Part shown: positions 7,601 to 10,189 of the stretch, one piece after another
Layout of the letters: every line of letters starts with the position of its first letter
Numbering within the stretch: the stretch's first letter is position 1
DNA from: a virus
Virus record (IMG/VR): IMGVR_UViG_3300045747_000694
Span: 42,165-106,164 of that record
Reading direction: 5' to 3' (one strand)
Length of the DNA stretch: 64,000 bases
Notes under the pieces: generated by a model
What the model was told of the DNA's origin: nothing
What the model saw: only the letters and a program-made list of their open reading frames with translations
Database searches by the model: none
Made by a program: the position numbers and the translations under genes

Positions 7601-7705
7601 AGTGGTATGAAGTCCGTGAGCTACCAGAGCCTGGTGGGCATCCTCATCGAGGCGATCAAGGGCCTGAAGGCCGAGATCATGGAGCTCAAGGAGGACTTGG
7701 CATGA
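1625..7705 (+). CDS. giant tail fibre/spike protein (2026 aa) with collagen-like tract and C-terminal self-cleaving chaperone domain
   Basis: ATG with GAGGGAAG RBS. At least 8 copies of a (A/S)[19 protein letters not shown] module, a G-X-Y tract, and a C-terminal [10 protein letters not shown]...GVNY..KD.....H.GVIAQEVE...PEVV motif set of the peptidase S74 chaperone. Confidence 0.9.
5360..6124 (+). repeat. collagen-like G-X-Y repeat tract (~85 triplets with GAAIT interruptions)
   Basis: [19 protein letters not shown]... read directly in frame of the 1625 CDS. Recurrent [14 protein letters not shown] blocks also repeat at nucleotide level. Confidence 0.9.
7424..7702 (+). other. peptidase S74 / intramolecular chaperone autoprocessing domain of the fibre
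   Basis: ASS|DYRLK putative cleavage motif, then the conserved [13 protein letters not shown]...[16 protein letters not shown]...[18 protein letters not shown] and a terminal coiled coil. Confidence 0.8.
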
Positions 7706-8826
7706 GCAAGCGCCGTGAGTTCCACATGGACTTGAACCTGACCAACCAGTGCAGCCTGCGCTGCACCTACTGCGTCGAGACGGGCCTCTTCAAGGCCAAG
7801 AACTGCGACGAGATCATCCCCCAGTTCTACGAGTGGATCGACCGCTTCATCGTGTCCGACTTCTTCAAGGCCTCGTTCGACGTCCTCCACATCTCTCTCT
7901 GGGGAGGCGAGCCCACATTGGAGTGGGATACCATCTTCAGGCTGATGGAACGGTACCTCGGGGACAACCGCGTGATGTTCATGCTGTACACGAACGGCTA
8001 CAGCGTTCCTGGGTCTCTTCGGAAGATGATCGTCAACGCGAGCGAGCTCCACAAGAAGGACCCCGACAAGCACTCGGAGTTCCGTCTTCAGGTCTCCTAC
8101 GATGGCCAGCCCATCCACGACCTGTGCAGAAGGACAGTGGACGGCAAGCCCACCGCTGACCAAGTGCTCAAGACGTTGCGGTGGGCACAGGACGCAGGCG
8201 TGGAGCATAGCGTCAAGTCCACCATCACCTTCGACACGCTCAAGCACCTCTACGAGGCATGGGCCGACGTGAACGCCATCAGCAGCGGGAGGTACTCTTA
8301 CTTCCCCACGCTGGACTACGTTCACTTTGCCACCCCGGAGCAGGTCAAGCTGCTGGACGGGTACATCGAGGAGATGAAGACGGGCATGAAGAGGATCGCC
8401 GCGGCGCTGCTGACCGCGAAGCGTGAGGGGAAGGCCGCCTCCGAGTTCAGGTGGTTCCGCCCCTCTCGAGACAAGTGCGCGGCCGGCATTCGCCTGTTCG
8501 GCCTGGATGTGGATGGCAAGATCTACTCTTGCCACTCGGCCATGTACTCGCCGGCCAAGAGCGACCACCTCATCGGCACGCTCGCTGACGACTTCTCCAT
8601 CTTCGAGAAGTCTGTGAGCAAGCACCCCAACACCCGCCCGGCGGAGTGCTCGTCCTGCGACGCGATCTTCTGCGTCAGCTGCAACACCACCAAGTACCCG
8701 CTCTCTTCCAAGGGAACCTACGAGGAGAGGTGGTCGGACTACACGGTCGTCGAGAGCTCGTGCCGCGTCTACCGAGAGATGGGCAAGGTCACCAGAGCCT
8801 ACATCCAGTTGAGGGATGCGACCTGA
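7702..8826 (+). CDS. radical SAM enzyme with C-terminal SPASM domain (peptide-modifying type)
   Basis: CSLRCTYC (CX3CX2C), GGEPTL. SPASM signature [19 protein letters not shown] ... [12 protein letters not shown] ... SC. ATGA overlap with the fibre stop. Confidence 0.85.
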
Positions 8827-9518
8827 TGGCCACGATGAGGCACAAGATTCGCGGTGACGCGTTCTTGTTCGACATCATGCAGCCCATCCTCGATCTGAGC
8901 TACTCCGGGGACCTGGCGGGTGCCTTGGCCCAGCTGGAGGCGCTCGAGATGCCAGCGACGCTCGACAGGGGACGGGACCTCCACGTCTGGTTCCAGGTCA
9001 GCGCAGAGAAGCTGCGCCACTACGTCAAGCTGTCGCGCTCGACCGATGCCGCCCGCACCGCCTCGCAGATGATCCGGGTCGACGTCGTCAAGCTCGAGGC
9101 GATGGTTGATGAGTTCTGGGCCTGGGGCTTCACCATCGGACTCCTCCAGTACATGAGGTCGATCGACGCGACCAACTTCATGACCAATGCGGAGCTGAAG
9201 CCCTACCGGGACTTCATCGAGAGCACCAAGCACCTCGATGACAACCCCAAGGGGCCGTTCATCTACGACATCTACCTCCTGAGCATGCGGTGTGCGCTGG
9301 ACATGAGGAGCAGTGCCCCGACGGACGAGGTCTTCAACGAGCTCCTCTCCAAGATGACCGTGCCGAACATCGACCTCCTGAAGTTCGGCCACATCCTGTT
9401 GTTGGACTACGTCGCGAGAGCGCTTACTATCCTTTGCAAGCTCTTGGGCAAAGATGCCGCGGTGGCTGAGCAGGTGGCGACTCTTTCGGCCCTCATCAGC
9501 AACTTGCCGCACGACTAG
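8826..9518 (+). CDS. hypothetical helical protein (230 aa), middle gene of the rSAM triad
   Basis: ATG at 8826 overlaps the rSAM stop (TGATG). High GC3. No motif recognised. Confidence 0.7.
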   Translation: MATMRHKIRGDAFLFDIMQPILDLSYSGDLAGALAQLEALEMPATLDRGRDLHVWFQVSAEKLRHYVKLSRSTDAARTASQMIRVDVVKLEAMVDEFWAWGFTIGLLQYMRSIDATNFMTNAELKPYRDFIESTKHLDDNPKGPFIYDIYLLSMRCALDMRSSAPTDEVFNELLSKMTVPNIDLLKFGHILLLDYVARALTILCKLLGKDAAVAEQVATLSALISNLPHD

Positions 9519-9526
9519 GACCGACC

Positions 9527-10189
9527 ATGCTACCGACAACTGGGACCATCAGGCTGAGGGGGGCTACGAGTACCGATACGAATGCGGTCAGTGTCGAGAT
9601 CTTTGGCACGCCCACCAACCTCAACCTCACGGCAACCATCGTCCGAACGCTGTTCGCTCTGGCGAGTGGCACGATCAAGCTGACGGATGGGTACGGCCAC
9701 TGCTACTCGAACTGCGGCTGCGATGCGAACTGCGGGTGTGATGTGAACTGCACCTGCGACGCCAATGGCGGCTGTATCTGCGACCTCTGCCCGTCCCCCG
9801 ACGTGCCCCTCGAGATGGCGGATGGCTCGGAGAAGCCAGCTGGCGAGATCGTGGTCGGGGACCTGGTCACCGCGTGGGACGAGGAGAAGCGTATCCTCAG
9901 CCCTCGCCGCATCACGTACGTCAAGCGGGGCGAGAACGTCAGGATGAGTCTCCTCCTGAGCAACGGCAAGTCTGGTGAGTTCGCCGTGAACCATCGCTTC
10001 CTCACGATCAGCAACACGTGGGCGGAGCTTCGGGACCTGAAGGTGGGCGACATCCTCTCGACTGGCGTCTCAGTGCTGGGGACGATGCTGACTGGCCCAG
10101 GCCCTGTGATCTCCATGCTCGTGGATGAGCTGCACACCTACGTCACGCTCGGCGTGGTGTCCCACAACGCCAAGTGCGGTAACCTCTGA
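9527..10189 (+). CDS. Cys-rich hexapeptide-repeat protein fused to a Hint (intein-like/BIL) autoprocessing domain
   Basis: aa 59-88 CYSNCGCDANCGCDVNCTCDANGGCICDLC. Then Hint blocks: C-PSPDVPLEMADGSEKPAGEIVVGDLV (A), FAVNHRFLT (B), VISMLVDELHTYVTLGVVSHN (F/G), followed by AKCGNL. Confidence 0.8.
   Translation: MLPTTGTIRLRGATSTDTNAVSVEIFGTPTNLNLTATIVRTLFALASGTIKLTDGYGHCYSNCGCDANCGCDVNCTCDANGGCICDLCPSPDVPLEMADGSEKPAGEIVVGDLVTAWDEEKRILSPRRITYVKRGENVRMSLLLSNGKSGEFAVNHRFLTISNTWAELRDLKVGDILSTGVSVLGTMLTGPGPVISMLVDELHTYVTLGVVSHNAKCGNL
9710..9781 (+). repeat. 4 x 18-bp in-frame tandem repeat encoding N-C-G-C-D-x type hexapeptides
   Basis: aactgcggctgcgatgcg / aactgcgggtgtgatgtg / aactgcacctgcgacgcc / aatggcggctgtatctgc. 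Confidence 0.85.

Follow-up and report, generated by a model that had tools for sequence, protein, structure and literature searches.

In the QhpD/QhpC system, a radical S-adenosylmethionine (rSAM) enzyme with a SPASM domain installs intra-protein Cys-to-Asp/Glu thioethers in a structural subunit, not in a secreted peptide. Fibres and spikes such as endosialidase K1F and T5 pb1 end in Peptidase_S74, a self-cleaving C-terminal trimerisation chaperone that is removed after assembly, exposing the mature tip. The rSAM enzyme PapB forms thioethers between Cys and Asp/Glu within repeated Cys-Xn-Asp motifs, where n can be 0-6 (PMC9413430). Here, we analyse a stretch of 64,000 nucleotides from a virus (hereafter the window; IMG/VR record IMGVR_UViG_3300045747_000694, positions 42,165 to 106,164 of that record), and more particularly four genes of its + strand, at window positions 7702-10496. 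With a probability of about 0.55, these genes can be read as a fibre-accessory maturation cassette, in which an rSAM/SPASM enzyme would cross-link the Cys repeat of a multidomain protein (hereafter protein 3) and the C-terminal Hint domain of this protein would then remove itself.

The four genes follow that of a 2026-aa tail fibre. They encode the rSAM/SPASM enzyme (374 aa, 7702-8826), presumed to be the maturase of the Cys repeat; protein 2 (230 aa, 8826-9518), a tetratricopeptide repeat (TPR)-like alpha-solenoid presumed to be a substrate-binding helper or chaperone; protein 3 (220 aa, 9527-10189); and a small helical protein of 99 aa (10197-10496). The genes are closely packed. The ATG of the rSAM gene at 7702 overlaps the TGA of the fibre open reading frame (ORF) at 7703-7705 (ATGA, 7702-7705), and the ATG of protein 2 at 8826 overlaps the TGA of the rSAM gene at 8824-8826 (TGATG, 8824-8828). 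The stop codon of protein 2 (9516-9518) is separated by 8 nt from the start of protein 3 at 9527, and a 7-nt gap lies between protein 3 and the start of the 99-aa gene at 10197. Shine-Dalgarno-like sequences AAGGAGG, GAGGGA and GAGG are found upstream of the starts at 7702, 8826 and 10197, respectively, and no terminator-like site was found on the + strand from the fibre gene to 10950. Re-reading of the ORFs confirmed all that an original prediction, made from the letters alone, had stated at the sequence level (coordinates, ATGA/TGATG junctions, 8-nt gap and motifs). Its set of three genes was right as to the genes and their coordinates, but the cassette has four, the 99-aa gene being conserved too. 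In the window, protein 3 is the sole Cys-dense ORF in a real frame and the rSAM enzyme the sole ORF with a CX3CX2C motif. A second rSAM or a second Cys-rich ORF was considered and none was found, the other Cys-dense stretches of the window being out-of-frame artefacts of GC-rich DNA.

The enzyme displays the rSAM cluster motif CX3CX2C (C17/C21/C24) and a GGEPTL motif (residues 68-73), scores above the gathering threshold of Pfam Radical_SAM (PF04055; 37.8 versus 29.5 bits) and matches phrog_1802 (3.6e-30). A SPASM domain is defined here by the seven-Cys motif CX9-15GX4C ... CX2CX5CX3C ... C, for two auxiliary [4Fe-4S] clusters. Seven Cys arranged in this way are present in the C-terminal part of the enzyme (C259-X12-G-X4-C277; C316-X2-C319-X4-C324-X2-C327; C354), are invariant or at least 90% conserved across 19 relatives and align to the SPASM region of CteB, the Pfam SPASM model staying below threshold on the window protein. 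Their spacing is somewhat contracted (CX2CX4CX2C versus the usual CX2CX5CX3C). The top NCBIfam matches are PapB, CcpM, the CXXX-repeat family, anSME, QhpD (TIGR03906, 2.1e-9), CefB and SCIFF. The best of them, the PapB model (NF047865), aligns over nearly the full length and reaches 69.3 bits versus a cutoff of 340, and the best 25 of the 49 NCBIfam matches are all far under their curated cutoffs. The prediction of a radical SAM enzyme with a SPASM domain is thus upheld, and the closest curated families act on Cys-rich peptides. An N-terminal, PqqD-like recognition element (RRE) of the kind associated with ribosomally synthesised peptides that are post-translationally modified (RiPPs) is absent from the enzyme, the cluster motif of which begins at residue 17. 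The alignments of CteB (5wgg) and 8vpo start at chain residues 100 and 113, opposite residue 10 of the window enzyme, and the RRE of CteB spans ~90 residues. Finally, the enzyme is 29% identical over its full length to an rSAM of Campylobacter phage CP220.

Protein 3 is composed of an N-terminal module (residues 1-58; 9527-9700), a Cys repeat (residues 59-87; 9701-9787) presumed to be the site of cross-linking by the rSAM enzyme, a mini-Hint autoprocessing domain of 127 aa, of the bacterial intein-like (BIL) type (residues 88-214; 9788-10168), and a short post-Hint tail (residues 215-220, AKCGNL, with the stop codon; 10169-10189). Ten Cys are found within 30 residues (59-88), the tenth of which, C88, is Cys1 of the Hint domain. 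Residues 59-87 consist of CYSN followed by CxCDxN hexads, which are encoded by an 18-nt tandem repeat at 9708-9774; they contain 9 Cys, 4 Asp and 4 Asn, i.e., 9 Cys versus 8 Asp and Asn. Protein 3 has just eight close relatives among 5.8 billion clustered proteins. The hexad consensus of this clade is C-x-C-[D 81%]-x-[N/D 69%], and the length of the repeat varies between members, from 21 to 55 aa, indicating that it is evolutionarily labile. For the relative in locus L015, the public gene call (124 aa) starts at the Hint 'MADG', and the real ORF (L015 6630-7352) begins ~350 nt upstream and encodes the N-terminal module and six near-perfect CxCNCNYx octads, in 48-nt tandem repeats whose copies are 96% identical. 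A similar truncation may affect the relative P0008 (121 aa).

Pairing of the rSAM enzyme with a Cys repeat extends well beyond the window. When IMG/VR was scanned with the rSAM alignment, 102 phage loci came up, and the neighbourhoods of 80 of them were kept for reading. A same-strand ORF with dense CxC(D/N) repeats lies within ~5 kb of the rSAM in 70 of these 80 loci, about half of the repeat ORFs being at most 1 kb downstream of it, and several of the ten exceptions are truncated contigs. The repeats near these related rSAMs are either CNYCTC(N/D) heptads or C(I/V)CNSDCxCNxVC hexads. In the reverse direction, a degenerate DNA pattern for two heptads retrieved 44 stretches on 43 contigs. The rSAM family is present in the DNA examined for 36 of the 44 stretches, and a comparison by eye of the contig names with the list of rSAM loci indicates that ~39 of the 43 contigs carry an rSAM. 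Finally, in protein P0007 (locus L006), the N-terminal module and the Hint domain are kept and an immunoglobulin-like middle replaces the Cys; no rSAM was found within 10 kb upstream of its gene or in the remaining 1 kb of contig downstream. The co-occurrence search proposed with the original prediction thus gave a pairing in both directions and, together with the rSAM-free P0007, it indicates that the Cys repeat is very probably the substrate of the rSAM enzyme.

The cassette as a whole is also conserved. The genes that had been noticed as a triad are found together elsewhere, and the four-gene cassette occurs in at least five distinct phage lineages, namely those of the window, L003-5, L007/8/19, L009 and L015/16. 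The order rSAM, TPR-like protein, Cys/Hint protein and small protein is kept in L003/4/5, L007/8/19 and L009; L015/16 have extra rSAM paralogues and a different gene order. Placement among fibre-accessory genes, as had been put forward, is real and recurrent, the cassette lying directly after an S74-terminated fibre gene in four of the five lineages (window, L007, L009 and L015). One could still propose that the genes are fortuitous neighbours, the Hint domain having inserted selfishly in the manner of an intein and the rSAM being an auxiliary metabolic gene without relation to it. The 11-12 unexplained rSAM genes of phage CP220 were indeed interpreted as metabolic in 2010 (PMC2853527), and an unrelated Hint match lies beside an rSAM fragment in L071. 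However, the order of the four genes is maintained across proteins that are just 26-40% identical, the Hint domain has neither an endonuclease nor a +1 nucleophile, with an 'extein' of merely 3-10 aa, and the co-occurrence counts given above also speak against chance. Fortuitous association is therefore already disfavoured and appears extremely improbable.

The sister repeat proteins, found beside related rSAMs outside the window clade, give insights into where the repeat could end up. They are 150-540 aa long. In 37 of them, the repeat runs straight into ...NY-SDxRLK, and position 1 of the Pfam Peptidase_S74 profile falls directly after the repeat in the four proteins, out of four, that have the full domain (24-41 bits, cutoff 22). 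In 27 others, the repeat is the extreme C-terminus. As the repeat is located either at the C-terminus or before S74, the sisters appear to be fibre-like and to end, once mature, in a C-terminal tip formed by the Cys repeat. In the window clade, the post-repeat position held by S74 in the sisters is occupied by the BIL-type Hint domain. Peptidase_S74 was the only family found by NCBIfam and Pfam searches on the sister proteins, with no family for the repeat. A tblastn search of isolated phages with the L011 sister protein gave no match, the low-complexity filter having probably masked the repeat.

This rSAM/repeat set includes the Campylobacter phages CP220, CPt10, CP21 and IBB_35, in which a protein of 534 aa with six CxC(D/N)CNY heptads is encoded ~2-4 kb away from the rSAM. 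The 21-bp repeat of this heptad protein, gp140 in CP220, was described in that phage as the only intragenic repeat and was not connected to the rSAM genes (PMC2853527). In IBB_35, the Cys-heptad protein (gene 3-9, 60.3 kDa) is among the proteins detected by mass spectrometry (MS) in purified virions, with 2.6% coverage, and the adjacent rSAM (gene 3-5) is not in this virion list (PMC3322345 supplement).

Several further observations were made on these sister loci. In CP220 and IBB_35, the Cys-heptad gene is separated from the rSAM by a gene annotated as T4 gp63-like, for an RnlA-type 'RNA ligase and tail fiber attachment catalyst' (L001 5926-7011 and L147 3876-4955, respectively). Baseplate genes follow, placing the pair in a tail-morphogenesis neighbourhood. 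The rSAM gene of CP21 is annotated as two coding sequences (CP21_110/111). Most of the sister loci L020-L098 contain 2-4, and up to 6, rSAM paralogues around the Cys-repeat gene, hinting at several different modifications; only one rSAM, along with the TPR-like protein, is found in the window clade, L015 excepted. Some Cys-heptad proteins (in L021, L022, L027, L029, L038, L056 and L084) end in a tail of ~14 aa, e.g., NYSDKRLKTEIIYM followed by the stop codon, which retains the S74 catalytic SDxRLK without the rest of the chaperone domain; L056 and L084 have 3-4 tandem paralogues. In L071, a weak Hint match by hidden Markov model (HMM; 5858-6160 of that locus, 5e-7) overlaps a short rSAM HMM match ~800 nt upstream of the main rSAM and may be an intein in an rSAM gene.

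Other sister sequences contain additional or different Cys motifs. The L044 sister (8139-8642 of that locus) has CHSN/CHSD tetrads, i.e., paired Cys-His in a CXXX repeat, in place of CxC(D/N), which bears both on a metal-binding reading and on the NCBIfam 'CXXX-repeat' maturase family. Many sister N-termini (L022, L027, L036, L080 and L013) carry a second Cys/His motif, MACxGHxNxCxSHxGY or MPCTCNxICxNDC, and these proteins also hold repeated '...IxAxHxNxLRxxIxxE..RR' segments.

The CxC spacing is typical of metallothioneins. One possibility is therefore that the repeats bind metal, either in a metallothionein-like manner or as a metal-zippered trimer, on the model of the His-x-His iron sites in the T4 gp37 needle, with the rSAM acting on the fibre, a cofactor or a small molecule. 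Besides the spacing, the Cys-His pairs of L044 and the MACxGHxNxCxSH motif with which sister proteins often begin would agree with such a site. Nevertheless, a passive metal site would explain neither the two-way link between rSAM and Cys repeat nor the rSAM-free, Cys-free homologue, and the Asp/Asn beside CxC are conserved as in known thioether substrates. The fibres are, moreover, nearly Cys-free: the 2026-aa and 530-aa fibre proteins of the window hold only 2 and 1 Cys, respectively. The alternative raised initially, that the rSAM acts on the fibre itself, is thus unlikely for Cys chemistry, and a Cys-based reaction on the fibre proteins was rejected on this ground. Overall, we consider the metal-site explanation unlikely.

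By its sequence features and its structural neighbours, the C-terminus of protein 3 is an A-type BIL-like Hint domain, predicted to cleave. Profile comparison with the Protein Data Bank retrieved 8w20 (6e-8), BIL2 (7e-7) and the C. thermocellum BIL (6e-4). The AlphaFold2 model has a predicted local distance difference test score (pLDDT) of ~90 for residues 89-215. In Foldseek, this model is closest to BIL2 of Tetrahymena BUBL (E 7e-9); DnaB mini-inteins and the C. thermocellum BIL come next, the target-normalised template modelling scores for BIL2 and the DnaB mini-inteins being ~0.7-0.77. All full-length members have C88, and N155/H156 of block B, H203 of block F and the terminal S212/H213/N214 are invariant. 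The predicted succession of a Cys tract and a mini Hint domain therefore stands, with Cys1, the block-B His and the terminal His-Asn retained. The residue at +1 is Ala in the window and A/V/T/I/M across members, with no conserved nucleophile; the tail after the Hint Asn is 3-10 aa long in all members, without any toxin domain, and no homing endonuclease was found in the Hint domain of this protein family. A splicing intein was ruled out by the non-nucleophilic +1 residue, the 3-10 aa tail and the lack of endonuclease. A pretoxin-HINT domain (PF07591) of polymorphic toxins was also considered, as P0002 and P0005 carry precomputed PF07591 matches, and was rejected, since no member extends more than 10 residues past the Asn.

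Related Hint domains terminate larger tail- or fibre-like proteins in a Holophagaceae metagenome-assembled genome (L143) and in Sphingomonas genomes (L144-L146). The Holophagaceae fibre-like protein is at least 435 aa long and its Hint domain is 57% identical; the Sphingomonas tail/host-specificity-like proteins are ~880 aa long. Over L143-L146, the identity to the Hint domain of the window is 29-57%, and SHN and a short tail are found. C-terminal Hint domains on phage tail proteins thus seem to be a recurring, little-noticed theme.

The Hint thioester could, instead of being simply resolved, transfer the modified N-terminal fragment covalently onto another molecule, for instance a fibre Lys, a protein of the virion or a nucleophile on the host surface, with Hedgehog and BUBL as precedents. 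That the best structural match is BIL2 of the Tetrahymena BUBL locus would fit such a ligation, as would the Hedgehog-like layout of an N-terminal cargo and a C-terminal Hint domain with conserved Cys1 and block-B His. However, the sisters use S74 or nothing at the Hint position, arguing for plain domain removal, no acceptor protein was identified, and the residue before Cys1 is variable, so that we regard transfer as rather improbable. A wider proposal would be that phages use dedicated rSAMs to cross-link Cys-repeat fibre tips in well over 100 lineages, including the Campylobacter phages, and that the Hint domain of the window clade ligates the tip to a fibre protein or a host-surface molecule; taken as a whole, it appears doubtful.

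By transitive homology, the N-terminal module of protein 3 is akin to a module that heads small proteins whose genes follow those of S74 fibres. Its residues 1-58, like the protein over its full length, align with the clade members L015, P0005, P0006 and P0007, and the N-terminal 52 residues of the L015 homologue match the beginnings of small proteins whose genes come directly after S74 fibre genes in isolated phages: Pseudomonas phage Astolliot (three tandem paralogues), Ralstonia phage RPSC1 (an unannotated ORF) and several Vibrio phages. In these isolated-phage proteins, the module corresponds to phrog_26817, a family of unknown function, which is also matched by L015 and P0007; the PHROG search gave no direct phrog_26817 match for protein 3 of the window. 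The module spans ~52 aa, with the motif LPxSGxIsL...VRxLAxxxSGxIxLSDLxGK, and an HMM built from outside proteins only (Astolliot and RPSC1) recovers L015 (2e-16), P0007 (1e-11), P0006 (1e-5) and P0005 (2e-3). The small genes of Astolliot and RPSC1 abut the fibre gene, and no rSAM was found in their fetched flanks. Protein 3 is encoded two genes after the S74 fibre in the same operon, as are its counterparts in L007, L009 and L015. From this gene position, the module would be a fibre-associated and possibly docking element.

These data bear on whether the cassette could encode a free RiPP, i.e., a diffusible bacteriocin, signal or anti-defence peptide that would not be part of the virion, with the 58 aa as leader, the Cys repeat as core and the Hint domain as follower protease. 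An rSAM/SPASM enzyme with a Cys-rich core is the pattern of ranthipeptides and sactipeptides, the core is short (21-55 aa), the Hint domain could substitute for a leader protease and, in L003-L005, the cassette is not directly beside a fibre gene and lies near ligase, methylase and ATPase genes. On the other hand, the N-terminus is homologous, transitively, to the heads of fibre-adjacent small proteins that lack an rSAM, which argues against a private leader; the proposal of a dedicated RiPP leader is thus not borne out. In addition, an RRE is missing from the maturase, the precursor reaches 220 aa, and neither a leader protease nor an exporter turned up in the cassette or in the scanned neighbours. 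The sister repeat proteins reach 150-540 aa, with S74 fibre chaperone domains, and one of them is a virion protein by MS. The original prediction of a RiPP-like maturase/precursor set was therefore right for the SPASM maturase and, very probably, for its Cys-repeat substrate, but on the above grounds the cassette is better read as devoted to virion fibre-tip maturation than as a RiPP natural-product cluster. A free RiPP seems rather unlikely to us.

Candidates for presenting the substrate to this enzyme, which lacks an RRE, are protein 2 and the 99-aa protein. Protein 2 gave no family match in Pfam, NCBIfam and PHROG searches, and no significant match against BFVD. Its model is all-helical, a 13-helix solenoid with a pLDDT of 93.5, consistent with a TPR-like alpha-solenoid. 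An exhaustive search of 1.84 billion cluster representatives found only 13 relatives, a word-index search having returned protein 2 itself alone, and identity between cassettes is just 26-41%; this TPR-like helper appears uncharacterised. The 99-aa protein has orthologues (39-71% identical) at the equivalent position in L003, L007 and L009, a relative located between two rSAM genes in L015 and further matches in L028 and L031. It gave no family match in Pfam and PHROG, and its iterated HMM reached nothing beyond the clade, L015 and L028/31. In the distant loci L010/L011/L013, the start of the rSAM gene is overlapped by a small acidic ORF; in a comparison of the 99-aa protein with these ORFs, the hhalign probability was just 25%.

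All these results lead us to propose the following maturation pathway. Protein 3 would combine an N-terminal part presumed to serve in docking, CxCDxN hexads forming a stalk or tip, and a C-terminal, 127-aa BIL-type Hint domain. The rSAM/SPASM enzyme, without an RRE of its own, would modify the Cys repeat, to which the two-way co-occurrence of the genes points as the target. Cys-to-Asp/Asn thioethers are the most probable chemistry, by analogy only: the nearest characterised families form such links, and Asp/Asn are the conserved non-Cys positions of the hexad. Such cross-links would yield a rigid tip resisting reduction and proteases. Their folds and their strict co-occurrence suggest that the TPR-like and small helical proteins could present the unfolded repeat to the enzyme or hold it. 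The conserved catalytic residues would then allow the Hint domain to form a thioester at Cys88 and to cleave itself off, while cyclisation of Asn214 could also free the 6-aa tail, the modified repeat remaining as a free C-terminal tip. Self-removal of the Hint domain leaving the repeat as the tip fits the sisters, where the repeat is the C-terminus or precedes the self-cleaving S74.

Several points weigh against this pathway. Each of its steps, whether chemistry, cleavage or virion location, rests on comparative evidence. The rSAM is far below every curated family cutoff, so that its reaction cannot be transferred by homology, and the Cys-Asp/Asn pairing is a guess: PapB needs a Cys upstream of the Asp, the sister heptads have three Cys per two Asn/Asp, and the CHSN repeats of L044 look metal-binding. 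The Thr of Hint block B is replaced by Ala/Val, which could lower N-terminal cleavage, and the AlphaFold2 model of protein 3 is of low confidence over residues 1-87 (pLDDT <50). The docking role of the N-terminal module is itself a presumption from gene position; the window N-terminus is weak against the HMM of the outside modules (E 0.62) and carries an insertion, its membership being transitive. In L003, the cassette lies amid small genes and DNA-metabolism genes, and not directly after a fibre gene. Finally, the virion detection in IBB_35 concerns a distant sister protein, with only 2.6% coverage.

The cassette is part of a compact block of + strand genes (1-10950) headed by two fibre-type genes. 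The first one (10-1602) opens the block and encodes a fibre-like or virion structural protein of 530 aa, which matches PHROG virion structural and head-decoration families (phrog_2647, 4.5e-24). The second one (1625-7705) encodes the 2026-aa tail fibre, which contains collagen-like repeats and ends in Peptidase_S74 (Pfam Collagen 1.2e-30, Peptidase_S74 3.7e-15; many PHROG tail-fibre families). The S74 domain is located at residues 1935-1988 (56.4 bits versus a cutoff of 22), with the motif SDYRLK, and a local S74 HMM matches 7319-7699.

The window, taken from a 153-kb contig, looks like part of a large phage genome: it encodes a class II ribonucleotide reductase, a ligase, an AAA ATPase and many PHROG matches, and its syntenic relatives are IMG/VR or metagenome contigs of 109-198 kb. 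A full-length transfer-messenger RNA (tmRNA) gene (11774-12142, - strand; Rfam 105 bits, ARAGORN tag ANEPMFAQQLAAA) is located just after a convergent SLT transglycosylase gene (11126-11683). A prophage inserted at an ssrA site was considered and rejected, because synteny with the 109-198 kb phage contigs runs past the tmRNA and phage-type genes fill the window; the tmRNA gene thus appears phage-borne and not an attachment site. Three other ORFs deserve mention. The first (14081-14926, + strand) has at least two predicted membrane helices and a GGDEF motif (RVGGDEFAVLL), and its L007/L008 orthologue carries Pfam GGDEF, making it a candidate phage diguanylate cyclase. The second (26239-27492, - strand; 417 aa) matches a PHROG transposase family (phrog_10081, 1.3e-19). 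The third (30687-33332, - strand; 881 aa) is major-vault-protein-like (Pfam MVP_shoulder 2.5e-27 and Vault_3 2e-9), without any PHROG match.

If the proposed maturation is true, rSAM peptide cross-linking would be extended from secreted natural products to the building of virus particles, and a new class of enzymatic modification would be added for the receptor-binding or fibre-tip proteins of phages. It would also account, in a concrete and testable manner, for at least one of the 11-12 rSAM genes of CP220-like phages, namely that beside the Cys-heptad gene, and likewise for the clusters of 2-4 rSAM paralogues in many environmental phages, CP220 and IBB_35 being cultivable. That Peptidase_S74 and Hint, two unrelated self-cleaving domains, could be interchangeable after the same repeat bears on fibre-tip maturation in general. 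The variable copy number of the repeat suggests a tunable element in host recognition or particle stability, and a repeat-directed rSAM family without RRE and with natural tandem substrates would be of interest for peptide stapling.

Compared to the ranthipeptide systems (PapB/PapA for freyrasin, CteB/SCIFF, CcpM, CefB and the CXXX-repeat maturase TIGR04115), the window has in common a SPASM rSAM beside a substrate with regularly spaced Cys and Asp/Asn. It differs from them in that its rSAM is not a PapB orthologue (69 versus 340 bits), has no RRE and has a contracted SPASM spacing, that its substrate is a multidomain protein of 220 aa, with an N-terminus related to fibre-accessory proteins and a C-terminal Hint domain, and that its genes lie in a phage fibre operon with TPR-like and small helical helpers. 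The relation to QhpD/QhpC is distant in sequence, the substrate, context and accessory proteins are unrelated, and the QhpC system has no tandem repeats. With the BILs, BIL2 of BUBL and Hedgehog HhC, protein 3 shares a mini-Hint domain with Cys1 and terminal His-Asn, no conserved +1 nucleophile and a position C-terminal to a cargo; it differs by the fusion to an rSAM-associated Cys repeat in a phage fibre-accessory protein, by a 3-10 aa tail without toxin or ubiquitin-like domain, and by the block-B change from Thr to Ala/Val. Peptidase_S74 occupies the same post-repeat position in the sisters and also ends the 2026-aa fibre of the window, but it acts by a Ser-Lys dyad, in contrast to the Cys thioester and Asn cyclisation of Hint, and has another fold; a chaperone role of the Hint domain is putative. 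The phrog_26817 proteins (three in Astolliot, one in RPSC1, and those of Vibrio phages) are likewise small, encoded directly after an S74 fibre gene, and made of the ~52-aa N-terminal motif and a variable C-terminus, but they have no Cys repeat and no Hint domain, there is no rSAM in the Astolliot and RPSC1 flanks, and the window copy matches them weakly, with an insertion.

In the searchable literature, which does not cover subscription journals, we found no paper linking rSAM enzymes to tail-fibre or Cys-repeat virion proteins and none linking Hint domains to RiPP maturation. The initial statement that no described system combines an rSAM-SPASM enzyme, a Cys-repeat core and a Hint domain in a fibre operon holds within the same literature. 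In Pfam, NCBIfam and PHROG, we found neither the Cys-repeat proteins nor the rSAM/repeat pairing annotated. SPASM rSAMs, BIL-type Hint domains and S74 fibres are, individually, of known kinds. By comparison, the pairing of rSAM and repeat, the maturation of a fibre tip by an rSAM and the interchange of S74 and Hint after a repeat appear undescribed, and the comparative data at hand suggest a substantial chance that they represent a new phenomenon in phage biology.

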